Assembly (NCBI GenBank): GCA_963822925.1
Contig: CAWGJN010000001.1
Coordinates: 217,622-281,621 of the forward strand
Direction of reading: 5' to 3'
DNA from: an uncultured Gemmatimonadales bacterium
GTDB taxonomy: Bacteria > Gemmatimonadota > Gemmatimonadetes > Gemmatimonadales > GWC2-71-9
DNA: 64,000 bases
The position numbers were made by a program, and so were the translations under genes. Position 1 is the stretch's first letter. Each line of letters opens with the position of its first letter. This document shows positions 11,035-37,158 of this stretch, piece by piece. Under the pieces are notes generated by a model. It was not told where the DNA came from. It searched no databases and saw only the letters and a list, made by a program, of their open reading frames with translations.

Positions 11035-11973
11035 CTACTTCTTTCCGCCAGCCTCCAGCCGGAGCACTGCCATCGCCACATCGCCCACGACCTGCAGGCT
11101 CGCGGCGCTGAGCTTGTCGGGCGTGTCGTCGAGCGTGTGCCAGAGGCTGTTGTTGCTGCCGTAGCTGAAGTCGATTACGTCGATGGCCCGGATACCGGCG
11201 AGTTGCAGTGGAAGGTGATCGTCGATGAGGCTCTGTCCTGGAGTCGCGATGAATACCTTCTGGTAGCCGGCGATCTTCGCCGCGTTCCACACCCGCTCCA
11301 CCACCTCGGGCGCGCCCAGCAGGGAGTTGCCCTCCTGGTAGATCTGAAGGTCACGGTCGCCCACCATGTCGAACAGCACGGCGAACAATGGCCGCGGTCC
11401 AGGCGCCTGGTTCTTCGCGTAGTAGCGCGCCCCGAGCAGCGTTTCGGTCGAGTCCTCGAAGCTGCCGAAGTCCTCACCATCCACGAACAGCAGGTCCACG
11501 CCCAGTGTCGAGGGCGTCTTCCGGAGCGCATCGGCCACCCCGAGGAGCACCGCGACACCGGAGGCGCCGTCATTCGCGCCCGGGATCGGCGTGTTGTGAT
11601 CGGCCGGATTGATGGCCTTGTCGGCGGTGGGCCGCGTGTCCCAGTGCGCGAAATACAGGATCCGGTCGGCGGCGGCTGGGTTGAACCGCATCATCACGTT
11701 GTGCAGCGGAACCTTGGCGCCCTTCGAGGTGACGTTCACCCAGTCCTGGATGAAGACCGTGTCAGCCTTGGCGCGGGCGAGGGAGTCGAGCCAGGCCGCC
11801 ATCCGACGATGCCCCTCGGTGCCTGGAACACGCGGCCCGAAGGCCACCTGGGTCTCGACATACCGCAGCGCGGCGGCGCCATCGAACTCCCTCGGCGGGG
11901 CCGGGGGCGACGAGCTGCAGGCCGTGAGCAGCGCGAGCAGCACGAATAACCCGGTCAGGCGGTACCGCATCAT
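11035..11973 (-). CDS. M28-family metallopeptidase-fold lipoprotein, glutaminyl-cyclase-like
   Basis: ORF, 312 aa. Lipobox LLTAC. Metal-ligand-type motifs HWDTRP, NDGASGVAVLL, VDGEDFG and LIDDHLPL. The start overlaps the sprA stop (ATGA at 11970-11973). Confidence 0.75.
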   Translation of the reverse strand: MMRYRLTGLFVLLALLTACSSSPPAPPREFDGAAALRYVETQVAFGPRVPGTEGHRRMAAWLDSLARAKADTVFIQDWVNVTSKGAKVPLHNVMMRFNPAAADRILYFAHWDTRPTADKAINPADHNTPIPGANDGASGVAVLLGVADALRKTPSTLGVDLLFVDGEDFGSFEDSTETLLGARYYAKNQAPGPRPLFAVLFDMVGDRDLQIYQEGNSLLGAPEVVERVWNAAKIAGYQKVFIATPGQSLIDDHLPLQLAGIRAIDVIDFSYGSNNSLWHTLDDTPDKLSAASLQVVGDVAMAVLRLEAGGKK

Positions 11974-17900: not shown

Positions 17901-18069
17901 GATATTGGGGCGGCACGCGCAGGGCGAGTGGTGGCGCGCCAAGCGTCGCCCTGACTCCCACCCCGGGCACCGCGGTCGTGTCGGGTGAGAGTCCCAGGGA
18001 ATCGGCTTGCGCGGCTGCCACAGCGGGACTGAAGGCAATGACGCCCAGGGCAAGGAGAAAGCGCGTCAC
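11970..18069 (-). pseudogene. sprA: SprA-like giant T9SS outer-membrane protein (about 2030 codons), interrupted by one frameshift
   Basis: ORFs 14185..18126 and 11970..15320 overlap in different frames. They join as ...GRQYVGVGVL / IRERQSTGIFNAQTDDIG near 15215-15235. Signal peptide (V)TRFLLALGVIAFSPAVAAA|QA if GTG 18069 is the start (alternative ATG 18126). The N-terminal region (GVIGRRLRVNVDWDTQRDY...IIQVFYEGLEDE...VEVGSVAF...QKGS...DFEYGRFYW) matches my recollection of the conserved SprA N-terminal domain. Confidence 0.7.
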
Positions 18070-18171
18070 GCTCAGGAAGCCACTGCGATCGTCATAAGTG
18101 GTTTGGATTCCTGAACATAACGCCACGTCTGGGACCCATCAACCGAGCCAGGAGCCCGCCCAGAAATCCCC

Positions 18172-19719: not shown

Positions 19720-20792
19720 TGCGCTGGCCGCTGCTCGATCGCTACGTCTTCCGCAGCTGGATACGGCTGTTCCTGCTCACGATCCTGGGCTTCCCGATCG
19801 TGGCCACACTCATCGACCTCACCGACAGCCTCAAGAAGCTGCTCGACCGCGGCATTCCGTTCAGCGGGATCGCTCTTGGCTACGTGTACCTGCTGCCGGA
19901 AAAGATGTTCGAGATCATCCCGGCCGCCGTGCTCGTCGCGACCGTATTCACTGTCGGCACGCTGGGGCGGCACTCCGAGCTGACCGCCGCGAAGGCCGGC
20001 GGCATCAGCTTCCACCGCTTCGTGCTGCCCATCTACGTGGGGGCCGTGCTGGCGGCGTTCCTCTGCCTGTCACTCGAGGAACTCGCGCCTGCCATGACGG
20101 AGCGGAAGGTGCAGATCCACGGCGAGCGGGTCGGCTCCCGGGGGCAGCGCTACAACTTCGTCTATCGTGCCGAGCGCGGGTGGGTCTATACCGTGCGCAC
20201 ACTCGATTCGAAGACGCAGCGGCTCATGGATGTCGTGCTGACGCGGCAGGGCAACGGGAGGAAGAACCCCTCACTCGCGGTCACGGCGGACAGCGCCACC
20301 TGGGACAGCACGGGCTGGCGCCTGTGGAACGGGTCGAGCCGCGCCGTCGTGGACGGGGCGGAGCAGGCCAGTTTCCGCTTCCGTTCGATGCGCCTCAACA
20401 GCATGACGGAACTGCCATCCGACCTGCTCGCCGAGCCGCGAAGGCCGGAGGAAATGCGCTACGCCGAGCTGGGGAGGTACATCGAGGCAGTGGAGAACTC
20501 GGGGGCGGATGCCGGCAAGCTGCGGGTGATGCGAGCGCTCAAGCTCGCCGTGCCGGCCACCTGCATCATCATCGCGCTGTTCGGGGCGCCGCTGGCCATG
20601 ACGTCCTACCGCGCCGGCACCGCCATCGGTATCGGCATCAGCCTCGCGACGACGATCGTGTTCCTGTTGTTGGTGCAGCTCTCGCAGGCGCTCGGATCGG
20701 GCGGGCTCGTCAAGCCCGAGGTCGCCGCCTGGCTTCCCAATGCCGTGTTCGGTGTTGCCGCCGTGGTGCTGCTGCTGCGCGCACGGACCTGA
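19719..20792 (+). CDS. LptF/LptG family permease
   Basis: ORF, 357 aa. MRWPLLDRYVFRSWIRLFLLTILGFPIV... Six predicted helices. Paired with the preceding paralogue. Confidence 0.8.
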   Translation: MRWPLLDRYVFRSWIRLFLLTILGFPIVATLIDLTDSLKKLLDRGIPFSGIALGYVYLLPEKMFEIIPAAVLVATVFTVGTLGRHSELTAAKAGGISFHRFVLPIYVGAVLAAFLCLSLEELAPAMTERKVQIHGERVGSRGQRYNFVYRAERGWVYTVRTLDSKTQRLMDVVLTRQGNGRKNPSLAVTADSATWDSTGWRLWNGSSRAVVDGAEQASFRFRSMRLNSMTELPSDLLAEPRRPEEMRYAELGRYIEAVENSGADAGKLRVMRALKLAVPATCIIIALFGAPLAMTSYRAGTAIGIGISLATTIVFLLLVQLSQALGSGGLVKPEVAAWLPNAVFGVAAVVLLLRART

Positions 20793-23700
20793 CTAGAAGC
20801 CGAACCGCCATTTCGCGCCCAGCTGCATGGTCCAGCGCGACTGCCGCTGTCCGTACACGGTGCGCTCCACCACCGCCGGCTGCGTGAACTGGTAGATCGG
20901 CCGGTCGTTGACCGTGTCGTAACCGGCTACGCTGAGGAACGCGGGACCCTCCTCGAACGCGCTCACTTCCTTGTACAACCCCCAGTCGCTGCTCAGGAAA
21001 TTCAGGAAGTTGAAGATGTCGAGGGTGAGCTCGATGCCGGAGCCCTTGACCTCGGGCGTGGTCCAGCCGACGCGCAGGTTGAAGTAGTTCTGCCATGGGT
21101 TGCGGCAGGAGTTTCGCTCCAGGATGCCGCCGCGCGCGGCCGCCAGGCACTTCTGGCCGCTGATGAAGCTCTGCAGCGAGTCGTACGCCGACGGGTTGCT
21201 CAGGGTAATCTGGCTCGGGTCGGCCGGCACGAACACCAGGTCGTTGCCGGCAATACCGTCCCCATTGGCATCGCCATTGGTTCCGGCTGGTCCGGAGTTG
21301 ATCATCCAGCCATACGGCGCGCCGGAAAACCCGGTGTAGAACACCGAGAAGTCGAAGCCATACGGAAGGTCCACCGTCCCGGTCAGCGTCACCTTGCCCG
21401 GCACATCGAAGAACGAAGTAGTCACGTCGCGGTTCGCAATGGTGCCTGCGCCGATCGAGGCGAACTGGTAGTTGGAGAAGGCCTGGCTCGATGTCGCCGA
21501 GATCTGGTCGGTGGTGTGCGAGTAGGTGTATGCCGCGTTCATCTCGAAGTGGTTCGCGAAGTTCTTCTGCACCTGGATCGTGCCAGCGAACGTCTGCCCT
21601 TCCGACGTGTTGGTGTGGAACACCGCACTGGTGACCGCCGCGGTGCGCCGCACCACCGTCGCCCGCCCGTTGGCCGCGTCGAAGGTGCCGTAGATGGCGC
21701 GGCCTTCGCCCGAGGTGGTGGGGTCCTGCGGAATGTTGGTGTCCTGCAGGTAGATCTGGTTCACCTGCTTCGCGTAATAGCCGTCGAGCGTGAGCACGAA
21801 GCCGCCGGGAAGCCGCTGGTCGAAGCCGAGCGAGGCCCGGAAGTTCTGCGGATACTTGAAGTTCGGGTCGAAGTAGTCCACCTCGCCGGCCACGCCCGTG
21901 GGAGTGCCGGTACGGCACGCGATCAGGCTGCGCCGCGGGATCCACCGTGAAGTCGGGCGTAGCCGCACCAGTGCAGGTCACCTGGATGAAATCCGCACCC
22001 GTGTTGGTGAACGAGTTCGCGAGCCACACGTACGGCGGCCGTCCCGAGAAGATGCCCACCCCGCCGCGAACGATCGTGCGCGCCTGCCCGGTCACGTCCC
22101 AGTTGAACCCGAGGCGTGGCGACCAGAGGACGTTCGCATTGGGAAAGTTCCCGGTGTTGATCGGCAGGTTCGGGTCGTTCACCAGCGCCGGGTTGGTCCT
22201 CGGGCTGTTGATGAGCGGAATGTCGGCGCGGATACCGAGTGTCACCGAGATGCGCTCGGATGGCGACCACTGATCCTGGGCGTACAGGCCGAACTGCTGC
22301 GCCCCGATGAGCGCGATCGGCCCCTTCGGCTGCAGCGGCGTCGCGATGCGGCGCTGGAAGGCCGAAGGCGTGCCCGCGGCCAGGCTGTCGAGGCTGCTGA
22401 ACGACCAGACGCCGATGCTCGCCTGGAAGAACTTGTTGTCGAAGCTGAAGAACTCATTCTGCGTGCCCACGGTGAACCGGTGTGAGCCGGTGCCGAACGA
22501 GAAGTTGTCGGCCACCGAGAAGATGTTCTGGTCGAGGCTGTTGGTCTGGGAGAATCGTTCGGCACCGGCGGCGAGCCACGAGGTCGACGCGCCGATGTTG
22601 CCCACCGCCGTGAGAATGAGCGGCACCTGCTCGGGCAGGTCGCGCGAGTCGCGCACCGTCTGGTAGCCGGTGAGGAACTCGTTCGAGAGTCCCTCGCCAA
22701 AGTCGGCGATCCAGCGCGCGCGCAGGGTATTCACCTTGCCGATCTGGACATAGCCGCTGTTCGAGAGCTGCCAGCCGTCGCGCATGCGACCGGTGATCGC
22801 GACGCCAGTGGGGTTACGGATGTATGAGCCGAGGTCGGCGTCGGAATAGTTGTAGGACAATTCGAGCTGGCTCGACTCACCGGTGTTGATCGAGAGCTTG
22901 CCGAAGAGGTTGGTGAGCGGGTTCTCCACGTTGGGCGTGCTGCCATCCCCGGAGTTTGTGATACCATAGGACCCGAGGATGTCGACGAACTCGTCTACCG
23001 TCGTGGTGGTGAAGCCGGTGTTGGCCAGGTCAGTCGCATCGTTTCCGGTGAGGTTGTACGGGGACGAGAACGCCGATTCGCGCGACTGGATGTCGGCCGA
23101 CACGAAGAAATGCAGCTTGTCGGTGAGAATCGGGCCACCAAGCGTGGCGCCGTACTGCCAGATGCTGAGGCTGGTGAAGGTCGGGTCGTCGCGGTAGCCG
23201 GCGAGGCTCTTGCTCTGCCGGTACACGAATGCCGAGCCGAGGAACCGGTTCGTGCCCGACTTGGTGATGCCGTTCACCATGCCGCCGGCGAAGTTGCCCT
23301 GGCGCACGTCGTACGGCGCCACCATCACCTGGAACTCGGACACCGCCTCGAGCGAGATCGCCCGTGCGCCCGACTGGCCACCCGGCACCCCCGACGCCGC
23401 GAGGCCGAAGAGATCGTTGTTGACTCCGCCGTCGATCTGAATGTTGTTGTACCGGTTGTTGTTGCCGGCGATGGATGTACCGACCGCCTGGGGCGCGCTC
23501 GTGATGAGGTCGGTGAAATTACGTCCCTGCAGTGGCAGGCTCTGGATCGCGGAATCACCAATGATCTGTGACGGGCCGGTGCGGCTCGCATCGAGCAGCT
23601 TGTTGTCTTCCTGCGCCGCCACCTCAATTTCCTGGAGCTGCACCACGGTTGGCTTGAGCGCCACGTCGCGGGTCATGCGCGTGCCCAGACCCAGGGTCAG

Positions 23701-24003
23701 ACCCTGCTGCACCACGGGCAGGAACCCGATGGCGCGGACGGTTAGCTGGTATCCGGAACCCGGCGTGACGTTTTCGAAGCTGTAGCGCCCATTGCTCCGG
23801 GTATTGGCGATGAAGGTCTGCCCCGTCTGCAGGTTCTTGAGCTCTATGCGCGCGGCATCTACCGGGGTGACCGCACCCTCCTGGGTGACCGTGCCCTGAA
23901 TTGCGGCGGTCGTGACACCCTGCGCATGGAGCGAACGCCCACCTGCCAGCAGGACCGCGAGCGACAACGCCGCGCGGCCGATCATTCGGGGGCAGCTTTG
24001 CAT
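20793..24003 (-). pseudogene. TonB-dependent receptor with carboxypeptidase-regulatory-like N-terminal domain, interrupted by one frameshift
   Basis: ORFs 20710..24051 (good to ...PDFTVDPAAQ) and 20793..21968 (good from LIACRTGTPTGVAGEVDYFDP to the C-terminal WRFGF) join near 21920-21940. Signal peptide ...GGRSLHA|QG. Plug-like IIGDSAIQSLPLQGRNFTDLI. ATG 24003 is preceded by GAAGGAAG. Confidence 0.8.
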
Positions 24004-24356
24004 GAGGCGCTTCCTTCGACGACTCGCGGGACGCTGGCAAACCACCACCAATGGCTGGAACCGCCCGGGAGGCCGGGCGAACGGCCATAACTCGTTTACT
24101 GCATTTGGTTTAGCTGATTCGGTGAGCTGCCGATCCGGGCCGCCTGGCTGTCTATGTATAGGCCAGTTGCCGCATCACAAACGCTCACTGGGGGAGAAGT
24201 TACGCACCAGTCGATCTGCGTCAAGCACGCTGCGCAGCCATTTACGATCTCGTGACTGGTTGTCGATGAAGTCCACTGGTTGACAGGGACCAATCGCGGT
24301 CGTTCTTTACCCCGGTTCCCGCACCGGGGACTGGATTCGACCCAAGGAGCGCGCAA

Positions 24357-25359: not shown

Positions 25360-26790
25360 CTAGTACGACGCGTTGTTGCTGCTGTAGAAGTCCACGGCGA
25401 GGAAGCGCCCCGCTTCGCGTACGCCGTCCTCGGTCAGAATGTTACGCCAGTCAGGCTGCTTCGGCTCCTTCAAGTCGCTCGAGACCATCAGCCGCCAGTC
25501 CCCGACGCCGGTCCGGTCGGCAAAGATGTACCACTTGCCCTGGCCCATGTCCTGGTAGTTCCACACCTCGAACGGCGGGGCCCGCTGGATCTGCGCGCGG
25601 CGCCACATGGACGTCGCGGCACCATTCTTGGCGAATATGCGGCCGCGATCCGTCTTCCAGCCGGGAATGTTGCGTTCCTTGTAGTTCTTGTTGGCGAACG
25701 CGATCGCGGCATAGAACTGGTCGCGCGCCTCGTTGACCTGCGTACCCTTGTTCGGGTCGCGTGCCGCCCAGAAGTCCGTAAGGTACTTCCGCTTCGCGTC
25801 GTCACTCAGCGACTTGTTCCACACCTTGAGTTCGCTCGGTGAAGCGATGTAGTACAGCGGGGCAAAGGCGGTATCGAGCGCCTCCGGACTCATGTACTTG
25901 AAGTAACCCTCGTCGGACGTCTTCTCGGTGTTGATGCGGCTGACTTCCTGCTGCAGCGTGGTATCCAGCGCGGCCATGGTCATGGGGGCTGAGCGATCGA
26001 TCCCGCGGCCGGCGAGCTGCAGAAGCACCTTCAGCTGGTAGCGGCCCGGTGGCAGGCCCTCGAGATTGAGCCGTCCCTTCAGCATCCCGCCGGATGCGGC
26101 CACCTTCACCGGCGTGTTGGCCGTCTGGACCAGCGCCTTGCCGCCGGCGTCCACCACTTCCACCGCCATCGTCCCCGATTCTTCCGTGCCTTCGTTGTAG
26201 GCCTCGAGCACGTAGTACGCTTCCGGCTCGAGCGGCGTCAGGCGCAGCACGGCGGATGGGCTGAAGAGGGTGCTGCCCTTCCGGATCTCGCCCGGCTTGG
26301 GCACCGAGTCGCTGGCCGTGGCCGACCGCATCGCGGACGCAAGGGTAAGGTCGGAAGCATCGGGCCGGCTGGTGTAGGCCTCCACCGGAATGCTGTTTGC
26401 GAGCGTCCGTCCCGACACGGAATCCGTGACTTCCACCGACACGGTGTACGTCCCGGGCGCGATGGCGAAGTCCATCATCTCGAGTCCGTTGTTACCTGGG
26501 GTGCGAACCGCGGCGGCCGAGAAGCGCGTGCGCCACGAATCGGTGTGGAGGGTGATGCCGGCCTGGTCGGTGACCTTGACCCCCACCAGGTACACCGCGC
26601 CGGTGGGACCCGGCTCCATGACGGAAAGCGGAACCTGGATCAGGACGCGCACCCGAGTCTGGCCGCCGTTTTCGGGACGGTATGACCTCACGGCGCGAAG
26701 GGAAAGTCCGTCAGGGGCCTGGGCCAGGACGGCGGGGGCCTGAACGAGCAGCGCCAGCAGGGCCAGAGCGAGACAGCTCCGGAATCGCAC
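25360..26790 (-). CDS. GWxTD domain-containing secreted protein
   Basis: ORF, 476 aa. Signal peptide ...APAVLA|QAP. C-terminal PGWKTDRGRIF...PPFEVWNYQ matches the GWxTD motif context. Confidence 0.8.
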   Translation of the reverse strand: MRFRSCLALALLALLVQAPAVLAQAPDGLSLRAVRSYRPENGGQTRVRVLIQVPLSVMEPGPTGAVYLVGVKVTDQAGITLHTDSWRTRFSAAAVRTPGNNGLEMMDFAIAPGTYTVSVEVTDSVSGRTLANSIPVEAYTSRPDASDLTLASAMRSATASDSVPKPGEIRKGSTLFSPSAVLRLTPLEPEAYYVLEAYNEGTEESGTMAVEVVDAGGKALVQTANTPVKVAASGGMLKGRLNLEGLPPGRYQLKVLLQLAGRGIDRSAPMTMAALDTTLQQEVSRINTEKTSDEGYFKYMSPEALDTAFAPLYYIASPSELKVWNKSLSDDAKRKYLTDFWAARDPNKGTQVNEARDQFYAAIAFANKNYKERNIPGWKTDRGRIFAKNGAATSMWRRAQIQRAPPFEVWNYQDMGQGKWYIFADRTGVGDWRLMVSSDLKEPKQPDWRNILTEDGVREAGRFLAVDFYSSNNASY

Positions 26791-26942: not shown

Positions 26943-28082
26943 TCAGAAGCCGACGCTGAACGTGAAGAAGTTCGTCGGCCCGAGCGTGCCCATGTACTTG
27001 TAGGCATAGTCGAGGCCGACGCTGAACTTGCTCGCCGTCTGGAAGGAAAGGCCGCCACCGAACGCCAGGCCCTGCAGGTTCTCCTCGTCCGCCACCGAGC
27101 TCGGGAGCTGGGTCGGGGTGATGTTGTTGGCCGGCTGATAGCTGTAGCTCACCCGGAGCGCCGCGCCGAAGCCCGAGCCGCCGAGGTGCTTGAAATCCGC
27201 TTCAGTGCCGAAGCCGAACGACGCCTTGTTGCTGATCTGCTGGTTGAAGTCGCCGATCAGCGTCCAGCGGGTATCGGTCTTCGAGACGATGTCGTAACCC
27301 AGGGCGACCTTGAAGACGGTCGGCAGGCCGTAGCCCTTGGTGCTGAGTACGCCCTGCTGCGGGTTGGTTGGCACCGTCGGAACGCCCGGCACCGAGTCAC
27401 GCGGCACCTGGACGATCAGCGGGTCGCCGGCGTAGCTGATGTTCGAACCGAGGTTCATCAGCGTGAACGAGAACTGGATCGGGTGCCCGCCCAGCCGTGA
27501 GTGGAAGTTCGTGCCGAAGTCGACGGCAAACGCGCTGCCGGTGGCGCCACCCAGGTTGTCGAAGATGAACTTCGCCGTGATGCCGGCGCTGAACCGGTCG
27601 GAGAAGTTCTGGGCGTAGGTGAGGCCGCCGAAGGTTTCGCTCACCGAGTACACCGAGCCGGTGCCATCGGGTTGCTCGACCGTGTAGACCGGCTGGTCAC
27701 CGAAGCCGAAGGTGCCGAACTGAAGGCCGAAGGCCTTCGACCGGCCGCCGAACGGGAACGAAAGGCCCGCCCAGGCATAGCTGGTGTTGGCAACGTAGTC
27801 GTACGCGCTGGCCGTGAACCCGCTGGTTCGCTGCAAGGCGATACCGGCAGGGTTGTAGTACAGCGCGCTGACGTCGTTGGCGATCGCGGCAAACGATGTT
27901 CCGAGTGCCGCGCCGCGCGCCGAGGCGCCGAGCAGGAGGAATTCCGCGGAGGTGGTGCCGTACGACGTGTTGTCGCCTTGGGGCACCGATGCGCTGGTGT
28001 CCTGCTGGGCCGCAAGCAGCGTCGGGCTCCCGATGAACAGCATCCCCGCCAGTGCCCAGCGAAGTCTTTGAGAATCACGCAT
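26943..28082 (-). CDS. porV: PorV/PorQ-family T9SS outer-membrane protein
   Basis: ORF 26943..28136 trimmed to ATG 28082, preceded by AGGAGA. Signal peptide ...PTLLAA|QQD. GTTSAEFLLLGASARGAALGTSFAAIANDVSALYYNPAGIAL is the hallmark PorV N-terminal pattern. Beta-barrel-like C-terminus ending in F. Confidence 0.75.
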   Translation of the reverse strand: MRDSQRLRWALAGMLFIGSPTLLAAQQDTSASVPQGDNTSYGTTSAEFLLLGASARGAALGTSFAAIANDVSALYYNPAGIALQRTSGFTASAYDYVANTSYAWAGLSFPFGGRSKAFGLQFGTFGFGDQPVYTVEQPDGTGSVYSVSETFGGLTYAQNFSDRFSAGITAKFIFDNLGGATGSAFAVDFGTNFHSRLGGHPIQFSFTLMNLGSNISYAGDPLIVQVPRDSVPGVPTVPTNPQQGVLSTKGYGLPTVFKVALGYDIVSKTDTRWTLIGDFNQQISNKASFGFGTEADFKHLGGSGFGAALRVSYSYQPANNITPTQLPSSVADEENLQGLAFGGGLSFQTASKFSVGLDYAYKYMGTLGPTNFFTFSVGF

Positions 28083-28148
28083 GATCTTTCGATCTCCTGA
28101 GGTAGGTGGTGGGGCCCCGTTCGGAACCCCACTCACCGGGCCAGTGGA

Positions 28149-31100
28149 CTACTGGGCGAAGTTCACCACCGTAAAGCGGCCGACCCTGCGTGCGTCGCCG
28201 GCTTCGATCATATAGAAGTACACACCCGACGCGACGACCTGGTTGTTCCGGTTGCGGAGGTTCCATGCCTCCGAACCGCTGTAGTCGGTCGAGTTGTGCT
28301 CGAGCATGCTCACCAGGATACCGCTGGACGTGTAGATGCGGATGATCGCCTGGGTCGGCAGGTTCACGAACTGGAGGATCTTCGCTTCAGTCGTGGCCTC
28401 GTACCCGTTGGTCACGTAGTACGGATCTGGCACCGTGTGCACCCGGGTCAGGTCCAGGTTGGTGGTCGCCACCGTAGCTGGTCGGCTGCGTCACCGTGAA
28501 CTTGACCTGCAGGCCCGGGATGGCCGGGGAGCGCACGACCGGCGCGAAGCGTGTACCCGGTCGGCGTGGTGCCTGCCGGCAGTGTGCCGGCGGCCGCGTC
28601 GCCGGCGGCGGCCTTCACGACGCCGCTGTAGGTGCGCAGCGTCCACTTCGTTCCCGGCCGCGCGGCAGTGCGCCGCCGGTGAGCTGGAAGATGTAGCGCT
28701 CACCGTTGATGTAGAGGCCGATGCCCGTGCCCGTCGCCGGCAGCTGCCGGTGCATTGGGTGATGACGACCGGTCCCGGCGCGACGGTATTCACGAAGCCG
28801 CACCGTGTCCGGCCAGGTCGGCCGGCCCGAGTCCGCCACCTCATTGATGCAGTACTCCGCCACGTTGGGCGACGTAGTTGAAGTCGAGCCCAGTTGACCA
28901 CGCCGTCTGCCGTCCGCGTCGGTGACGAAGCCCCATGAGGCGCCGCCTGCGTGTTGAACGGCACCGGGACGTCGTGCGTGATGTCTGACCGACTCCATCG
29001 TGCCACCCGGTGCCCCACGTGAGCACCACGTCCGCCTCGCGGCTCAGGCCGGCGAAGCCGTAGCGCGAAGAACTGGATGTCGTGCCGTTGTTCGCCGGTG
29101 ACGCTGCAGCGACCGTCGGCGTGAGCGGATTCTGGTCCACGTGTTGATCGGGGCCCAGATCGTGTCCACACCGGTCAACCCGCTGCCGACCCGGATGCTG
29201 TACGCCGGGTGGTTCGACCGTTTCGTTGTCGCCCTGGAACCAGCGCGAACCGCCGGGCGAAACAGCGGCCGTGGCAGCTGGTCGTTGCCCCCGACGCAGC
29301 GCACGAGCGCGGCGGTGTTGTTGCCGATCAGGTTTCGGCGGGCCGCCTGGCCCTCGAAGCTGGAGAACTGGATGTACTGCCGCTCGGTGACACCGACGGC
29401 GGCATTGCCGGTCACCGTGCCCGGGATGCCGTACGTCGCGGCGGCAGTCGGGTCGATGTTGACCGGCTGCGCGCCCAGCTGGGCTTCGAACTGGGTGATG
29501 CCGTCGAAGCTGCTCCAGATCGGCCACGGCGTCACCGTGACGAACGGGGTCTCGCACGCCATCCTTGTTGAAGGTGACGTAGAAGATGTAGCAGGCGCCG
29601 CCGCCGCCGAAGTTGGTCACGCCACCGCACAGTCGGGTTGTTGGTGTCGTAAGCCGTCACCGAGTCGATGACTGCGGTCGAGGTTCAGCGCCGGCAGCAG
29701 CGCCGGGATCAGCGGTGCAAAGGCACCGGACACGCCGTTGGTCGCCGGCGGCGTGCCGTTGAAGCGGCCGGTGGCCGCGTCGATGTCGAACGGGCGGTCT
29801 GACGTCGAGCGCCGTATCGCCCGTCACCGAACAGGCCGGACGACAGCTGCGGCGCCTGGACGTTGGACCCGTTGACGCTCGGCGTGACCGGCTTGGCCAC
29901 CCGCGGAGACTCGAGGCTGCTCGGGCCCGACTGGTAGCTGTTGACGTCGAACGCCGTCACCGAGTAGAAGTAGCGGAAGTTGTTCTTCGGCTCGCGATCG
30001 ATGAAGCCGAACGGCACGCCGTTGTCGGAGAGCTGCGGGTAGCCGCCGTTCGCCGCCGACGTCAGCGCCGTGTCCGAGTTCGCGATCGACCAGCGCGCAG
30101 GAGTTCGACGAGGCAATCGCTCGCCCGGAACCTGCCCCGGGTTGACCACCACGCGCGACGCGGAACCCGAGCTTGACCTGGATGAACTGGCCCACCAGCG
30201 GATACGCCGTCGACACCGTCGCCGAGATGCCGCTGAACTGGACGTAGTTGAACGCCACCGGGCAGGCGATGGTCACGCCCGAGCTCGGGAGCGCAGGTCG
30301 ACACCGGCTGGATCTGGCCGGTGAAGTCGCTCATCTGCGGTGCCGGCGTAGTCGAACTGGGCCACCAGCGTGAGCTGACCCGAGTTGTCGACGCGGCCGC
30401 GATAGATCCGGTAGCCCTCGACGTCGTACTGCCGGTAGTTCGGGTCGTAGAGCGACGTTCGGGCTCGAGCGGCGTGCCCGGGTCGCTGGCGACCACGAAG
30501 TACGGGTCACCCTGGATTTCGGACGCCGTGGGCTGCCAGACGATGGAGACCTGGTTGTTGCCCGGGATCAGGTAGAAGTTCGGCGTGACCGGCGCGAACG
30601 GGAGGAGGAACCCGTTGTCGAAGATGACCTGCGCCGTGAGCGCCTTGTTGAGCAGCGAGCCCGGGATGGTCCGGAACTCGCTCTGCTCCACCGTGCCGCT
30701 CGCCGTCGATGTCGGTGTAGCCGTTGAACCCCGTGAGCGAGTCGATCTCGTTCGCGCCCACGCTGAGCTGCGACACGTTCGGTCAGGCGCACCGGGTTGC
30801 CCGGCGTCACGTCGGTGCTCGCCGTCGGCGCGAAGCCTGGGATCGCGACCGGGGCGGCGAAGATGTACGCCACCACGATGCTGCCGAAGCCGCCCGGGGT
30901 CAGGTTGAGCGCCGTGGACGACTGGTAGAAGCGGGAGTCGGCCGCGGACGGGTTGATGAAGCAGATGCCCACCGCGAAGACCACCGGTCACGTTGCAGGC
31001 CTGGTCGCCCTGGGCCGGATCCAGGTTGCCGGACAGGTAGCGGAAGAGCTGGAACACGTTGGCCGGGTCACGGAAGCCCGTGGCCGCGTTGATCGTGTTG

Positions 31101-32162
31101 GAGAAGAGCTGGATCTCGCCGGCGCCGGTGGGGCTCCGGAGGTACTTCACGCCCACGAAGCCCGGACCACCGAAGAACGGCGGGCCCCAGATCGTCGGGT
31201 TGTCGTACTGCTCACCGGTGGACGGGTCGAACGTGAACGTGTGCTCGTAGCAGAAGCCCAGCGCGAACGGGATGTTCACCGAGCAATAGTTCGTGCCGGC
31301 TGACGACACGTCCATGTCGGCCGCGAAGGCCGAGAAGAGGCTGTCGATCGCATAACCGCCCGCCGGCAGGTTCACCCGGAACTTGGCGTTGTTGCTGGAC
31401 ACGAACGTGGCGCCCAGCTGCTGCATGGTGGGACGGATCGCCGGCCGGACCGCGGAGTACGCGGCCGGGTCGCTCGCCGTCACGTTGTAGAACGTGAAGG
31501 TGAAGTAGACGATGTCCTCGTTGCCCGTCGGGTAGTTCCACCCCAGGCCGCGGGACTCGACCGCGACACCGAGCGGGTGCGGGCGTCCGGCGATGAGGCT
31601 CGGGTTGCCGTCCCAGGTCACGAACCAGACGTCACCCTGCGACGCCGAGATGATGCCCCGGAGCACCGGGTTGTAGAAGTTGTCGGCCTCGTTGATCTCG
31701 ACCGGCACGCGCGCGGCATCGGGCCACGCGCCGGCGTCCGCCGGGTTCTGGAAGTTGTAGATCGGCTCGACGCCGTCGCCGTGCTCCGTCGTGCCCTTGG
31801 GATCGAAGAAGAAGGCGCCGGAGACGTCGCCGTCCCACGCGCCACCGGGGTTGCTCGACCTTGCCGGCGATCTGCAGGCCGGAGTTGAAGACGAACTGGT
31901 TGCCGGTGCCCTTCGGCCAGAAGCCGCCGCCGATGGTCGACGAGTTCGTCGAGTCCACGCCGATGTTGCCCTTGGACGAACTGAGGCCCAGGTACACCCG
32001 GTTGACGGTCATGGCTCCCAGCGTACGGGCGAACAGGCGGAAGCCCCGCGGGCGCGCGCCCGGCTCAGGCTTTGCCGCGGCCGTCGCGGGAATGAGTGCG
32101 GCCAACGCCAGCGCCAGCAGTCCTCCCGCCGCGAGGCTTCTCGAACGCAACAAGACTTTCAT
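28149..32162 (-). pseudogene. Large secreted protein (about 1330 codons) with a T9SS/FlgD-Ig-like C-terminal domain; the reading frame is interrupted many times
   Basis: Signal-peptide ORF 31632..32162 (MKVLLRSRSLAAGGLLALALAALIPATAAA). C-terminal beta-sandwich ORF 28149..28472 (...AIIRIYTSSGILVSMLEHN...WNLRNRNNQVVASGVYFYMIEAGD...). Ten further overlapping minus-strand ORFs in all three frames have protein-like stretches that abut end to end. See the findings for junctions. Confidence 0.75.
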
Positions 32163-32240: not shown

Positions 32241-35200
32241 TTAGAAAGTGAACTCCACGCCGAGCCGCAGTTGTGTTCCCGCCCCATAGAAGTAGGTCGG
32301 TGCGGCCTGGTTCGCGTAGTAAAGCGCATTTGAAGCGTTCAGCTGCTCATCCACGGTGTAGATGCCGTCGCCGTTGCCGTAGCGCTGTTCTGCCCGGATC
32401 AGGTAGACGCAGTTCGGGACCGACGGGTCGTTGGAGGCGTTGACCCAGTCGCCGCAACCGCTGGCGCCGGCGCCACCGAACGTGAGGTTCATGGTACCAG
32501 TCTCCTCGTCGTACACGCCGTTCCCGACGCCTTCCTGCGCATTCCGGCGTGCTGTCCGCCGTGAAGTTCTGCTCCCGCTCGATCTCGCTCGTGATGCTGT
32601 TCGTGGTGACGTACTGGGTCAGCACGTTCGTGAAGTTCAGGATGTTCCGGGCATCAAGGTACAGGGACAGCTGGCTGCCGCCCAGGTTGAAGCCCTTCAC
32701 GAAGCGCATGTCGAACTGCTTGAAGGTCGGCAGCCGCTCGCTGTTGAGGCCGCTGACGAAGCCGCCGCGGCCACAGACCTGGCCCGTGAGCACCGACTGG
32801 TTGCCGTCGGGCACTCCGCAGGCCGTGTACGCCGTGCCACTGGCGAACCGGAACACCGCGTAGACCTGGAAGTTCTGCAGGATCGAGCCGATCGTCGAGC
32901 CCGCGTTCCACCCGTTCGGGAACGTAAGCGCCAGGCTGCCGACCAGGTTGTGCGGGCGCGACAGTGCGACCGGCGCAATGGCCTGCGGGGGCGGCTGGTT
33001 GCCGCCGGTAACCTGGTTCACGACCCGCGACCCGAAGTTGATGTAGGTGAACGGGTCGGTGCCGGTGTTGCTCGCGTTCGTGTAGCTGTACCCGAGCGTG
33101 CCGTTGAACAACTGCCCGAAGCGACGGTTCAACCGCAGGTCGAGACCCTTGGTGTTGCCGAAGTCCGAGTTCGTGATGAGCCGCAGGTCCTGGTTCTGCG
33201 TGGTGAGCGGATCGAACGAGCTCACCAGGCGGCCGGCGGCGTTCGCGAGGTTGTCGCGGTTGTAGGCCGAGATGTCCAGCACCATGTCGTCGTTGAAGGC
33301 GTGCTGGATGCCGAACTCGAAGATGATCGACTTGCCGTAGTCGACGTTCTGGCCGTACACGTTGTTGGTGTTCGTGACGCTGATGTCGGTATTGATGCCG
33401 CTGAGCGTGAGCGCGAAGTCCGGCGACTGCACCGCCTGGGCATACGAGAGGCGGAAGTTGGTCCGCTCGGTGACCGGGAAGGCCACCTGCACGCGCGGGC
33501 TGATGTAGTCGAACGACTCGTCGGCCACGTACAGGTCCGTCGGGTTCTGGCCCGGCTCGAGCGCCGGGTTGGTGGAGATACGGGGGAAGCCCGTCCACCG
33601 GCTCGCGTTGGTGCTGAAGTGGTCGTACCGCACGCCGACCTGCACCACGACGTCACCGATGTCGAGACGATCCTGGATGAACGCCGCGTAGCGAGTCGGC
33701 TTTTCCGCCCAGAAGTCGGAGAACGCCTGGCTGGCGATCTGGGCCGCGTAGCTGGTCATGTCGTAGCTTGACGTACTCGCCACCGAGCTGGATACGGTTG
33801 TAACGGTCGAGCTGCCAGTCGAGCGTGGCGTTCCCGACCCACCGGTTCTCCTTGTACAGCTGGAGAAACGCGTTGCTGAGACCGCCGTCGGGGAACGTCT
33901 GCGCCAGGCCGTACGGGTTGGAGCGATAGGTCACCTGGGCCGTGTGCGCGTTGACCGAGTCGGCGTTGTTGAGGTCGATCGCGCCGAGGCAGGTCTTTTC
34001 GTTCCGGATGAAGCAGTCGAGCTTCGTGAGGGTCTGCCCGTCGATGTCGTACGTCTGGTCGATCAGGTCGAAGCCGTACTGCAGCGGGATCGGGCTGAAG
34101 TAGAAGCCCAGCGTTCCCGTACCCGGCCCGCCATCCGCGAACGGGCTGAAGATGAACCGATCGGTCTGGTACGACAGGTTCACGTCGAGGGCCAGGGCGC
34201 GCTCCGCCGACTTGGACAGGTTCTGGGTCCAGTTCAGCGTGTAGACGGCGTTCTGCGCCCGGAAGCCAGCCTGCTGGTTGGCCGGCATGTTCGGGTTCAG
34301 CACGTTGAAATAGCTGCTAGGGCGCCGGGTACGTTGGCGTAGCTCCGACCCTGGTTCTGGCTGCCGGCGCCGCCAATGCGCAGGCGCGAGCCATTGCCGT
34401 AGGAGAAGTTGATGTTGGCACCAAGCTGGGCGGCGGAGAAGCTGGAAAACGGCACGCGCGCGCCGTGGCAGCTCTCACCGTTGTTGGACGCGATGTCCGC
34501 GTTGGAATTGCCGGCAAACGTATTGCAATCGCCGGTATAGATCGAGTACTGGTTGACGTCGACGGGCGCGGTTTCGTCGCCGACCCCGGTCGGGTTCTGC
34601 ACCGTCGTGTCGACACCCGTCGCGACGAACAACGGGACATCCTCCCGGCCCTTGCCGGCCCGAATCGATTCGTTGCCCTCGCCAGCGACGTTCAAGGCAA
34701 AGGTGAGCCCCTTGAGCACGAGCGGGCCGCTCAAGTTGCCCTCGAACCGGTTGTAACCCATGCCCATGGTCGAGCCGAACATCTCGTCGGACTCGGCCGA
34801 GAGCCGGCCGGCGAACTTGTTTCCGCCCGTGCGCGACGTGAGGTTGACGATGCCGGACTGGGCGTTGCCGTACTGCGCCGCCGCGGCACCGGTGGTGACC
34901 GACACTTCTTCGAAGCCGTTGGTGCCCATGGTGACGCCCGAAGCGCTCGATGCGCCGCCGGCGTTCGTCGAACCGGTGCTGTTCGCCCCGTTCGAGGCGG
35001 TCGTACCGGCGGCCACGAACCCGTTGCCGCGGTTGCCCGGCTGCGTGGAGACGCCGTCAACGTAGGTCGCCGCTTCGTCCGTCCGGCCGCCGCGAATCGA
35101 GAGCTGCGTGCCGTTGCCTTCCGCCACGACGCCCGGCTGCAACTGCAGCACCTGGCCCACCCGGTCGACCGGCAGGTTCTCGGTGAACTGACCGTCGATG

Positions 35201-35625
35201 CGCTGCTTCGTCGTGACTTCGTCGCGGGGCACCAGCGCGTTGGCCGCCGTGCTGACCGTGAGGGAGTCGAGGACGACCGTCGCCTTCTCGAGCTGGATGT
35301 CCTGGGTGATCGTCTGTCCCGCGAGGATCTTCACGCCCTCGATCTCGGTCTTCTTGTATCCGATGAAGGCCCCGCGCACCGCCACCGTAGAGGCGGGAAT
35401 GTTGTTGATGAAGTAGTAGCCCTGGGCGTTCGTGAGTGCACTGAATGCGGTGCCCACGATGAATACCTGGGCACTCTGGATCGGCGCACCCGCCTGATCC
35501 CGCACTTTGCCTTCGAGCTTACCAGTCTGTGCCGCGAGCGCTCCCGCGCTGGCGAACAGCAGCACTGCCGACAACGCGAAACGTCTCGCGAGTCGGGCGA
35601 AGGCGCTGACTCCGCTTTGTGTCAT
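32241..35625 (-). pseudogene. TonB-dependent receptor with carboxypeptidase-regulatory-like domain, interrupted by three frameshifts
   Basis: ORFs 34297..35682, 33653..34303, 32347..33783 and 32241..32516 join at about 34315-34330 (RSYANVPG / SSYFNVLNPNMPA), about 33760-33775 (QLGGEYV / SYDMTSYAAQ) and about 32545-32560 (EREQNFTADS / RRNAQEGVGNGVYDEETG). ATG 35625 is preceded by AGGAGGAAGG. Signal peptide ...SAGALAA|QTG. C-terminus LGVEFTF. Confidence 0.8.
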
Positions 35626-35842
35626 AGAAGCCTTCCTCCTGGGCGTAAACCGCGCTGCTAATCCACTCATCAATGCGATCACCGCTGGAGCGGGCGCTCC
35701 GGAGCATTCGTTGAGGGAAACGAATACGCCTCAGCGGCGCACTGCGCTGCTTCGCGCTAGCGCGCGAAGCGTTCTTCCTTGGGTCGAGAGACTGCTGGGG
35801 TTGTGCAACGGAACTCCGTCCTGGCCGGGACGGCGCGAGACA

Positions 35843-35871
35843 AGTATGAAGTGCGGTACCGTCGGTGTCAA
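35843..35871 (-). promoter_or_regulatory. Sigma-70-like promoter for the receptor gene (TTGACA-17 nt-CATACT)
   Basis: On the minus strand: TTGACA (35866-35871), a 17-nt spacer, then CATACT (35843-35848). It lies about 210 nt upstream of ATG 35625, leaving a long hairpin-rich leader. Confidence 0.4.
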
Positions 35872-35981
35872 GCAACGGCGACCGGGCCGTGATGTTCCGG
35901 TGACCGTCCGTAACTGCCTGAAACGCCTGCGGATACCCGGAAAGCAACGTTGGGGATTGCGACAACAGCGCGCCCCACACC

Positions 35982-37158
35982 TTACGCCTCGATGATCAGC
36001 TCCCGCTGGGCCCCGGCGGGGGTCACGAAGGCCTCGCCCGGGGTCAGGTACATGTTCACTTCGCTCCGCACCCCGAACCGGCCGGCAAGATAGATCCCCG
36101 GCTCGACCGAAAAGCCGGTTCCGGCCAGCAGTTGCCGGTCGTCATGGGTCTCGTAGTCGTCCAGGTGCGGTCCCGACCCGTGCAGCCGGTGGTCGATGGA
36201 GTGCCCCGTCCGGTGGACGAACGCACTCGCCGAACCCGGCGGCGGTGATCACGCCACGGGACACCCGGTCCACCTCGAACCCACGGATCGGGCGTCCCGC
36301 CGACCACCCCGACTGCACGAACTCGATCGCCGCATCCCGGGCATCGCGGACCGTCTTCCACACCTTCTGCACGTCGGTCGGCGGCCGGCGCCCGCTGAAG
36401 CCCATCCAGGTCTGGTCAGCGTAGACGGCGCCAAGCCGGCGCCCACCCCACAGGTCCAGCAGCACCACTTCGTCCCGCGCCAGCGCCCGGTCGTCTCCCG
36501 CGCGCGGCTCATAGTGCGGATTGGCGGCGTTCGGCCCGAAGCCGACGATCGGCGGGTGATCGAAATCGAGTCCGCCAGCGCGGATCGCATCGATGACTTC
36601 CTGCTGGAGCGCACTCTCGGTGAGCCCGGTACCACCGGCCGTGACCGCGCGTCGCAGGGCCTGTTGCGCCACGCGCGCCAGGACTGCCGCCGCGGCAAGA
36701 TGATCGGCCAGGTCGTCGGCACTCCAGGTGGAGGCGAACCGGGTCACCAGCGGTGCCGACGGCACCACCGTGGCGCCAAGCTTCTCGAGCAGCTGCACCA
36801 CGCCACTCGGCACCCGGTCGAGGTATGGCACCGCATCGTCGACCGCCACTTCCATAGCGACACGCTTTCCGCCGACCACGGCGCGGAGCGCCGCATGCAG
36901 TTCCTCCCAGCGGGAGTAGGGCATGATGCGCCCGGGGAAACCGGCCACCGACTGGAGTTCGATCCGGTGCGCCACGGCCACCGCCTCGCCGGTGCGTGGC
37001 AGGTAGACGAACAGCCGTCGACTGCCCATGCCGCCAATGCCGAGCACCTGGCCCAGCACCGGGTTTACGCCCTGGAAGTCGTAGAGCAACCATCCATCGG
37101 CCCCCGCCACCTCGAGCGCCGCGGCCAGCTCGGCACGATCCGGCGTCACCAGGGTCAT
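35982..37158 (-). pseudogene. M24-family metallopeptidase (Xaa-Pro aminopeptidase-like), interrupted by one frameshift
   Basis: ORF 36142..37218, trimmed to ATG 37158 (MTLVTPDRAEL), is good to ...VITAAGFGE. A different frame continues FVHRTGHSIDHRLHGSGPHLDDYETHDDRQLLAGTGFSVEPGIYLAGRFGVRSEVNMYL...ELIIEA to TAA at 35982-35984. The junction is at about 36215-36232. Confidence 0.8.

Follow-up and report, generated by a model that had tools for sequence, protein, structure and literature searches.

In Bacteroidota, the porU and porV genes lie next to each other. The PorU sortase is anchored by PorV (reviewed in PMC7463736). Consensus errors of long-read metagenome assemblies have been described separately. 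R10.4 consensus is near-finished at about 40x coverage, and its indels cause frameshifts (PMC9262707). For the MFD MAGs, Flye assembly (--meta --nano-hq) was followed by a single round of Medaka and short reads were not used (PMC12313526), and Flye merges strains that are ~98.7% identical into one consensus (PMC8302730). Here we analyze a gene that lies directly upstream of a PorV/PorQ-family gene in a 64-kb stretch of Gemmatimonadales DNA (hereafter the window) and that, as written, changes reading frame many times.

A conserved Gemmatimonadales gene beside a PorV/PorQ-family gene

The gene is a member of a conserved, uncharacterised Gemmatimonadales family of ~1330 aa. A TonB-like outer-membrane protein gene precedes it and a PorV/PorQ-family gene follows it, and the same order is found across Gemmatimonadales (Table 1). 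As stated in the first-pass annotation of this DNA, a signal-peptide ORF (31632..32162) and a C-terminal ORF (28149..28472) are present at the two ends, and the minus-strand ORFs between them overlap and use all three frames. The signal peptide, MKVLLRSRSLAAGGLLALALAALIPATAAA, is identical in orthologues L039, L008, and L007. The N-terminal domain (30990..31855) has a beta-rich fold in the AF2 model of homologue P0006 (pLDDT 79).

We took models PF18962/TIGR04183 (type A) and PF13585/TIGR04131 (type B) as the criterion for a T9SS C-terminal domain (CTD). The C-terminal domain matched CHU_C with 23.8 bits (E = 5e-5) and Por_Secre_tail with 14.1 bits, both under the 27-bit cut-off; a FlgD_ig match was also below the Pfam threshold. 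Such sub-threshold CTD matches recur in four orthologues. T9SS machinery is encoded in the window by genes for SprA (TIGR04189, 270 bits; cut-off 200) and a PorV/PorQ-family protein (NF033709, 137.7 bits; cut-off 90). The signal peptide was recognized by eye. The earlier label of T9SS cargo is plausible, but the CTD matches stay below threshold. The label porV holds at the level of the PorV/PorQ family.

Position upstream of porV raised the question of a PorU identity. In an NCBIfam search (E ≤ 0.01) there was no match to PorU, and the C-terminal domain alone gave a weak match, to the C-terminal end of the PorZ model (E = 1.9e-5). A PDB sequence search with a profile of 31 orthologues returned no match. 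In a fold search with an AF2 model (N-terminal 629 aa), matches were limited to beta-supersandwich domains, those of GH94, GH116, and GH15 enzymes and of YidC, with TM-scores ≤0.29; the 50 best matches included no gingipain-like structure. PorU identity is thus without support from NCBIfam, the PDB profile search, or the fold search, which covered the N-terminal 629 aa.

Table 1. Features of the gene and its neighbors, in positions of the window
Feature	Position	Strand	Remarks
Putative T9SS-linked cargo gene, protein ~1327 aa	28149..32162	minus	As written, 30-35 frameshifting indels; conserved in Gemmatimonadales
Sec-type signal peptide, N-terminal	32073..32162	minus	From translation; cleavage site inferred by eye
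Stretch without frameshift, most conserved N-terminal domain	30990..31855	minus	Best-segment identity to L039 96%
Indel zone, 29-34 frameshifting events	28476..30980	minus	~1 per 80 nt, overwhelmingly +1 insertions
Intact C-terminal domain, ~107 aa, T9SS-CTD-like	28152..28472	minus	Sub-threshold Pfam matches
First frameshift, extra base bracketed: GT[C]GAGC	31856..31857	minus	Orthologues GT-GAGC or GT-CGTC
Insertions, part 1	30980, 30779, 30701, 30461, 30454, 30337, 30281, 30168, 30123, 30103, 30087	minus	MAFFT
Insertions, part 2	29825, 29800, 29680, 29632, 29555, 29305, 29272, 29219, 29081(+2), 29069, 29011	minus	MAFFT
Insertions, part 3	28908, 28887, 28872, 28812, 28797, 28660(+2), 28549, 28478	minus	MAFFT
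Deletions in the zone	~29147, 28987(-2), 28945	minus	MAFFT
PorV/PorQ-family outer-membrane protein gene, downstream	26943..28136	minus	Intact; NF033709
CarboxypepD_reg/Plug TonB-like outer-membrane protein gene, upstream	32241..35682	minus	Three frame changes
Frame changes in the TonB-like gene	+1 ~32549; +1 ~33770; 23-nt insertion ~34315-34337	minus	
SprA/Sov translocon gene	11970..18126	minus	TIGR04189; split by one frameshift near 15207
OMP_b-brl_4/CarboxypepD_reg outer-membrane protein gene	20710..24051	minus	PF25183; one frameshift near 21940
Lone +1 insertion in gene matching, by synteny, the M24 peptidase gene of related loci	36223..36229	minus	

Number, position, and character of the frame changes

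Two alignments served to map the junctions, one to four intact orthologues and the other a frameshift-aware protein-to-DNA alignment (dynamic programming), the latter in place of default gapped tblastn, which blurs frame changes. The frameshift-aware alignment with the four references gave 30-35 events in the gene. By MAFFT, the frameshifting insertions comprise 29 of one base and 2 of two bases, and the frameshifting deletions 2 of one base and 1 of two bases; two 3-nt indels were resolved in addition. At 28650-28840 the four references do not agree with one another, which leaves indel placement there with an uncertainty of a few bases. A GC3 frame plot showed ~18 phase changes at 28456-31858, while most other genes keep one phase for 1-3 kb. 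The first-pass annotation had correctly seen many switches in this one gene but, at ~24, had undercounted them. Each junction that it quoted was recovered within a few bases (~31856/7, 30979/80, 30777-80, 30701, 30454-61, 30337/8, 30280/1, 29551-5, and 28476-9). The interval 30990-31855, described as clean, indeed contains zero frameshifts, and the density, described as far above background, amounts to at least 30 events in the gene, with ~8 candidates in the 60 kb outside it (Poisson P~1e-41).

The candidates outside the gene are located at 15207, 21940, 32539, 33766, 34318, 36223, and perhaps at 6694 and 19671. In the SprA gene, ORF 14185..18126 covers TIGR04189 profile positions 378-792 and ORF 11970..15320 covers 1081-1729, with the upstream frame remaining open for 1,023 nt beyond the switch; this split shows the background error rate of the contig. 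Likewise, PF25183 positions 1-494 and 511-807 lie in different frames of the OMP_b-brl_4 gene. The PorV/PorQ-family gene, 92% identical to that of L008, has 0 frameshifts over 360 aligned codons. The lone frameshifts in the SprA gene, two OMP genes, and the M24 peptidase gene agree with an unpolished long-read contig.

Within the gene, ~90% of the breaks are insertions, which outnumber deletions ~10:1. The inserted base is the same as a neighboring base in only 6/29 cases, while random insertions would give 45-49% (P = 0.002-0.005). The earlier placement of junctions at 2-4 nt homopolymers is therefore not borne out. At 31859-31860, the example given for it, the conserved GG/CC is unchanged, and the extra base is C at 31857 or G at 31856. 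For 18/29 insertions (62%; null 23-24%, P~1e-5), the extra base coincides with the alternative state of the orthologues in the adjacent column, the null including a simulation in which random bases were inserted into intact orthologues, which were then realigned. The same signature was present in L066 (11/18), L002 (10/12), L065 (10/15), and L007 (6/13). Contexts TCG, CTCG, and GTCG are enriched around the inserted base, in agreement with a C/G wobble SNP written twice. The inserted bases look as if second SNP alleles had been set into the consensus beside the first. By codon phase, 7 insertions follow position 1, and positions 2 and 3 are followed by 11 each; a phase preference was rejected since this distribution is not different from chance.

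Random read errors at very low effective coverage, or in an unpolished patch of one or a few raw reads, could produce an artefact without any mixture of strains. In the low-quality Flye contigs L002 and L066, whose neighboring genes are broken throughout, this gene is about as densely hit (16-24 frameshifts per 4 kb), and a rate of one error per ~80 nt approaches that of raw reads. Modal read accuracy is 99% (PMC9262707). Random errors would not, however, be expected to yield a 10:1 excess of insertions, avoidance of homopolymers (6/29 versus ~47%), or the match to orthologues' alternative bases (62% versus 23%), and we regard this explanation as unlikely.

The strikingly uniform +1 direction and the limitation of the events to one surface-protein gene would suit biological recoding, by programmed ribosomal frameshifting or editing at each site, or targeted insertion-type mutagenesis. 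Such a process is extremely improbable: insertion sites share no slippery or stimulatory motif beyond the TCG and CTCG contexts, no frameshift site is conserved in any orthologue, the orthologues being one uninterrupted frame, and unrelated genes of other long-read MAGs show the same pattern. We know of no precedent for ~30 recoding sites in one bacterial gene.

The repaired frame and the state of the locus in other assemblies

A repaired translation was built by protein-guided alignment to orthologues. Removal of the indels yielded 1,327 aa with 0 stops, 86-88% identical over the full length to the intact orthologues L039 and L008. This comparison had been proposed in the first-pass annotation as a check; it also gave 38 window-specific substitutions in the broken part versus ~35 indels (about 1:1). 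dN/dS in the broken part is 0.16-0.26, compared with 0.14-0.19 between intact orthologues in the same region; purifying selection is retained. Window-specific changes at codon positions 1+2 number 29/1229 in the broken part versus 3/710 in the 5' part. These changes and the slightly raised dN/dS could be due to codon mis-assignment beside indels or to substitution errors, and selection may have relaxed slightly there.

Three observations would also be compatible with a genuine pseudogene, recently inactivated and decaying beside an intact porV: the full protein is not encodable from the sequence as written, dN/dS to some references (0.23-0.26) is slightly above that of intact pairs, and changes at codon positions 1+2 are in excess. 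Decay of bacterial pseudogenes proceeds mostly by substitutions, with indels biased to deletions, and natural +1 insertions are mostly slippage duplications. Here ~35 indels are accompanied by 0 stops and only ~38 lineage-specific substitutions, and the inserted base avoids its neighbors, unlike in slippage. The same signature occurs across various genes of long-read assemblies and is essentially missing in short-read ones, and the family is intact in most loci from other genomes. We therefore consider inactivation highly improbable.

An uninterrupted frame of at least 1,230 codons is present in 40/58 loci from GTDB representative genomes. Systematic breakage of the gene in all assemblies is ruled out by the intact ~1330-codon frames that the genome scan found in most species. 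A large protein search returned fragments of 679 aa or less and nothing full-length, a result that reflects contig ends, broken long-read copies, or an index property. In the search for a same-species reference, the closest sequence was L064 (92% nt), a 2.2-kb contig that ends at window position 30904, and the next is ~85% identical (nt). In JGI metagenomes, an exact or gapped pattern scan found nothing, and a protein-guided scan reached at most 89% aa identity. Short-read contigs end within the gene in L005, L013, L026, L028, L030, L038, L043, L056, and L064; such ends would suit strain variability, but since these contigs are mostly short we place no weight on them.

Frameshifts in four genes of the locus differ by sequencing technology. 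Over ~78,000 aligned codons of 27 short-read loci, there were 0 events in the OMP and PorV genes, 5 compensating events in one low-identity alignment of the cargo gene, and 1 event in GWxTD. Among Microflora Danica nanopore loci, 13/22 have frameshifts in the same four genes (97 insertions versus 33 deletions). These are patchy, and the affected gene differs per MAG: OMP in L007 (+8/-1) and L037 (+7/-3), in both of which the cargo gene itself is clean, and GWxTD in L011 (+7/-1). After repair, genes of the frameshifted nanopore loci are stop-free in all but one locus (L057). Insertion-biased, patchy clusters are thus present in other Flye 'contig_N' nanopore MAGs and essentially absent from the 27 short-read assemblies.

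We conclude that the gene is very likely intact in the organism and that the frame switches are consensus errors of a nanopore-only, Flye/Medaka-type long-read metagenome assembly, the kind of assembly from which the window appears to derive. Of the two options offered earlier, local artefact or decaying pseudogene, the first is strongly supported by the stop-free repair, orthologue-like dN/dS, insertion bias, and long-read-only signature, all of which speak against the second. That the +1 insertions are truly present in the DNA is very improbable. Confounding of the polisher by paralogue reads from another genomic locus, the cause suggested with the artefact option, finds a parallel in MAG MFD09212.bin.2.127, which has two copies of the locus on separate contigs (L033 and L061). 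Those copies are too different for cross-mapping, however, L033 being 97% identical to L035 and L061 only ~59% identical to its best reference, L017. In addition, tblastn of a full orthologue against the window yielded a single copy, and clusters in other MAGs strike single-copy neighbors such as the OMP and GWxTD genes. The suggestion was not borne out, and interference by paralogous reads is quite improbable.

Probable collapse of strain alleles and comparison with known systems

The long-read artefact was probably caused by collapsed strain alleles; the signature of the inserted bases points to a strain mixture, rather than to low coverage alone. Two or more co-occurring strains would contribute reads whose alleles diverge in the middle and C-terminal part of the gene, and these reads would be collapsed into a single consensus. 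At many SNP sites, often the C/G wobble of Leu or Val codons, the polisher may then have set both alleles side by side, each doubly written site becoming a +1 insertion. Conserved stretches with few strain differences (the N-terminal domain at 30990-31855, the C-terminal domain, and porV) would have stayed clean. To our knowledge, an error mode in which both alleles are written has no published description, and this step is our inference. Between-species variability was rejected as a sufficient cause of the cluster: neighboring stretches such as 35800-37600 and 25700-26600 are as variable between species as the broken part, yet clean. Because of these clean, equally variable neighbors, a locally diverged allele must be postulated. 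We tentatively suggest, as a possibility that falls short of an even chance, a population in which the middle and C-terminal 2.5 kb exist as two or more strongly diverged alleles between near-identical flanking genes. If so, a hypervariable or dimorphic surface antigen would adjoin porV in Gemmatimonadales.

In annotation and in gene counts, this gene should not be treated as a pseudogene, and a T9SS-linked function should not be taken as lost from the lineage on its account. The analysis also provides a read-free diagnostic for this class of error with five components: insertions are clustered, they far outnumber deletions, the inserted base avoids its neighbors, it equals the orthologues' alternative base at an adjacent site, and the repaired frame is stop-free. 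Five independent long-read loci show this signature (the window, L002, L007, L065, and L066). The uncharacterised ~1330-aa family may itself merit study.

With the porU-porV pair of Bacteroidota, the locus shares a protein of >1100 aa with a signal peptide and a CTD-like end, a PorV-family gene directly downstream, and SprA nearby; unlike PorU, the product has no PorU match in NCBIfam, no PDB-sequence match, and, for the N-terminal 629 aa, no gingipain-like fold match. As in bacterial pseudogenes with many frameshifts (e.g., in reductive genome evolution), one gene has, as written, many disabling frameshifts and its neighbors are intact. The differences are the lack of stops, near-normal dN/dS, excess of insertions, ~1:1 ratio of indels to substitutions, and lack of slippage-type insertions. 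The link to strain-oblivious consensus, as treated in the Strainberry paper (PMC8302730), is that the inserted bases in the window resemble second alleles at variable sites. Strain collapse is usually discussed as an SNV-rich consensus, whereas here it would appear as +1 insertions, and the mixture of strains is our reading of them. The literature on nanopore MAGs stresses homopolymer indels, whereas in this gene homopolymers are avoided, ~90% of events are insertions, clustering is tight, and the alternative-allele signature is present. In other respects the window resembles nanopore-only MAGs, whose frameshifts are likewise indel-dominated, ORF-truncating, and coverage-dependent (Sereika et al., 2022, PMC9262707; PMC12313526; proovframe, 10.1101/2021.08.23.457338): the frame is stop-free after repair, and errors of this kind affect 13 of the 22 nanopore loci and leave the 27 short-read loci essentially clean.

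Frame breaks in the cargo gene

In the window, the gene for the putative T9SS-linked cargo protein (28149..32162, minus strand) is broken into overlapping minus-strand ORFs, which lie in three frames and fill the space between a signal-peptide ORF and a C-terminal ORF. In a third-position GC (GC3) frame plot, coding phase changes about 18 times from 28456 to 31858, while other window genes mostly hold one phase for 1-3 kb. The phase changes and the ORFs in three frames together establish that the frame switching reported in the first-pass annotation is real.

The breaks were mapped by aligning the window gene and four intact orthologues in MAFFT, and by our own frameshift-aware protein-to-DNA alignment, run with each of the four as reference. 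These orthologues come from the four closest relatives, which share 82-85% nucleotide identity with the window and all carry the gene as an uninterrupted frame; L039, L008, and L007 are Microflora Danica nanopore MAGs, and L006 is a MEGAHIT short-read contig. The MAFFT alignment contained 36 window-specific indels. Thirty-four were frameshifting (29 one-base and 2 two-base insertions, 2 one-base deletions, and 1 two-base deletion), and 2 three-base indels kept the frame; insertions thus outnumber deletions by about 10:1. The frameshift-aware alignment gave 30-35 events per reference, matching the MAFFT result in kind and place. The roughly 24 switches counted by hand in the first-pass annotation were therefore an underestimate, but every junction quoted there was recovered. 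Neither alignment method placed a frameshift between 30990 and 31855, the stretch previously described as free of switches.

The 12.9 kb alignable to the four relatives contains 43 window-specific frameshifting indels, of which 33 sit in the cargo gene. Codon-usage Viterbi segmentation and profile splits yielded about eight other candidate frameshifts in the entire window, two of them doubtful. Against this background, at least 30 events in 4 kb have a Poisson probability of ~1e-41.

Features of the cargo locus and candidate frameshifts elsewhere in the window
Feature	Position	Strand	Remark
SprA gene	11970..18126	-	profile match; candidate frameshift, switch ~15207
OMP_b-brl_4 gene	20710..24051	-	candidate frameshift, switch ~21940
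GWxTD protein gene	25360..26790		annotation supported
PorV/PorQ-family gene	26943..28136	-	downstream of cargo gene; NCBIfam subfamily, 137.7 bits (cut-off 90)
C-terminal ORF of cargo gene	28149..28472	-	
Signal-peptide ORF of cargo gene	31632..32162	-	
TonB-like OMP gene	32241..35682	-	upstream of cargo gene; three candidate frameshifts
+1 insertions in TonB-like OMP gene	~32549, ~33770	-	
23-nt insertion in TonB-like OMP gene	~34315..34337	-	window-specific
M24 peptidase gene		-	one candidate frameshift
Lone +1 insertion	36223..36229	-	the candidate frameshift of the M24 peptidase gene, a gene assigned by synteny with related loci
Non-coding call	37759-38705		codon-usage segmentation

Single frameshifts split two of the other genes. 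In the gene for the T9SS translocon protein SprA/Sov, TIGR04189 profile positions 378-792 fall in one frame and 1081-1729 in another, and the upstream frame remains open for 1023 nt beyond the switch. In the CarboxypepD_reg and OMP_b-brl_4 gene, positions 1-494 and 511-807 of Pfam PF25183 are in different frames. The 23-nt insertion in the TonB-like gene, whose flanks are locally divergent, is missing from all four relatives and differs in kind from the +1 insertions. The GC3 plot is noisy over ~36-38.5 kb, where GC is ~70%.

Coding capacity of the repaired gene

The first-pass annotation had offered two explanations, a decaying pseudogene or a local assembly or polishing failure. Removal of the indels restored a 1327-residue protein with no stop codons, which matches L039 and L008 over its entire length at 86-88% identity. 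In the broken part, dN/dS was 0.16-0.26, compared with 0.14-0.19 for pairs of intact orthologues in the same region, and just 38 lineage-specific substitutions accompany ~35 indels. Natural gene decay is dominated by substitutions, shows a deletion bias, and leaves slippage duplications. These hallmarks are absent from the cargo gene. Indeed, the inserted base repeats a neighbor in only 6 of the 29 single-base insertions, fewer than the 45-49% expected for random insertion (P=0.002-0.005), so the junctions are not associated with homopolymers as had been proposed. The stop-free repair, the near-orthologue dN/dS, the insertion-rich spectrum, and the non-slippage character of the insertions leave the decaying-pseudogene explanation unsupported.

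Long-read and short-read assemblies

In other genomes, the OMP, cargo, PorV, and GWxTD genes of the locus were put through the frameshift-aware alignment. In 27 short-read loci, recognized by k141_ or NODE_ contig names (~78,000 aligned codons), no frameshift event was found in the OMP and PorV genes; the GWxTD gene had one event, and the cargo gene had five compensating events, all within one low-identity alignment. Of 22 Microflora Danica nanopore loci, 13 carried frameshifts in the four genes, with 97 insertions versus 33 deletions, and with one exception the repaired frames were stop-free. The events were patchy. L007 had +8/-1 in the OMP gene and a clean cargo gene, L011 had +7/-1 in GWxTD, and L037 had +7/-3 in OMP. 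Since such clusters fall in different genes, a single shattered gene on a clean contig is a recurrent pattern in these assemblies and is not specific to the cargo gene. DNA alignment of the upstream region of L007 (L007:1600-5583; MFD02134.bin.2.230, contig_11795, a 2.6-Mb nanopore contig) revealed 13 lineage-specific +1 insertions and one deletion; most of these events hit the TonB-like OMP gene, and nine are packed into 800 nt. The SPAdes-named locus L001 (NODE_59272_length_4688_cov_0.700410, k-mer coverage 0.70) has 23 deletions versus 5 insertions; this deletion-biased spectrum in the same gene is the opposite of that of Flye contigs, and may reflect a hybrid assembly whose gaps were filled with long reads.

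The Microflora Danica MAGs were assembled with Flye (--meta --nano-hq) and one Medaka round, without short reads (PMC12313526). Nanopore consensus of that kind needs ~40x coverage, below which indel frameshifts occur (PMC9262707). Given the isolated frameshifts elsewhere in the window and the matching error signature, the obvious inference is that the window stems from the same kind of long-read assembly. Taken together, the stop-free repair, the indel spectrum, the clusters in long-read loci, and the nearly clean short-read loci support the second of the two explanations, specifically a long-read consensus artefact and not real biology.

The inserted bases suggest how such an artefact could arise. 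In 18 of 29 single-base insertions, the extra base matches the alternative one that orthologues show in the directly neighboring column; for example, the window reads T-C-G where relatives read T-G or T-C. The same was seen at 24% of random junctions of this alignment and in 23% (38/163) of random bases put into intact orthologues and realigned likewise (P ~1e-5 against the realignment null). Allele-like insertions were in similar excess in other long-read loci, making up 11/18, 10/12, 10/15, and 6/13 of those in L066, L002, L065, and L007, respectively. The contexts TCG, CTCG, and GTCG are enriched around the inserted base, the pattern expected from Leu or Val codons whose C/G wobble SNP was written twice. 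Flye collapses co-occurring strains into one consensus (PMC8302730). Reads of co-occurring strains were probably collapsed here, with the polisher then emitting both alleles at many SNPs. The cluster would correspond to a 2.5-kb stretch with unusually diverged strain alleles, and the conserved N-terminal domain, the C-terminal domain, and porV would have stayed clean. Between-species variability alone fails to predict the cluster. The sole remaining reading of some interest is that the artefact may mark a gene for a surface protein that is hypervariable among strains.

The locus and its product

The window has a GC content of ~67% and is most closely related to MAGs from Gemmatimonadales. A protein-guided scan that covered each GTDB species with a single genome found 58 loci, 40 of which carry the cargo gene as a single uninterrupted frame of at least 1230 codons. 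The gene order is conserved: sigma and anti-sigma (zf-HC2) factors, DUF92, M24 peptidase, a CarboxypepD_reg/Plug TonB-like OMP of ~1100 aa, the cargo gene, a PorV/PorQ-family gene, and GWxTD. This neighborhood recurs across Gemmatimonadales (window ~11.9-37.9 kb, loci L003-L063). One MAG, MFD09212.bin.2.127, holds two very divergent copies of the whole locus on separate contigs (L033 and L061), one 97% identical to L035 and the other 59% identical to L017, owing either to genuine paralogs or to contamination of the bin. A large protein search returned 111 homologues, none longer than 679 aa, despite ~1330-codon frames in many public genomes; the ends of contigs, breakage of long-read copies, or the index itself could account for this.

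Once repaired, the protein carries a Sec-type signal peptide, and no Pfam domain exceeds threshold. Its C-terminal ~100 residues give sub-threshold matches to CHU_C, Por_Secre_tail, and FlgD_ig, consistently in the window and in four orthologues, and also match the PorZ model at its C-terminal end. Because the gene lies upstream of a PorV-family gene, a PorU-like identity was tested and gained no support: NCBIfam gave only a weak PorZ-tail match and no PorU, a 31-orthologue profile found no sequence in the PDB, and the N-terminal 629 residues of homologue P0006, modelled with AlphaFold2 (pLDDT 79, pTM 0.81), matched only beta-supersandwich domains (GH94, GH116, and GH15 enzymes, and YidC; TM-scores ≤0.29). 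The cargo gene is best described as encoding a conserved uncharacterised Gemmatimonadales protein. The protein is probably secreted through the T9SS, a system described in some reviews as specific to Bacteroidetes; in the window, SprA is encoded ~10 kb from the conserved neighborhood.
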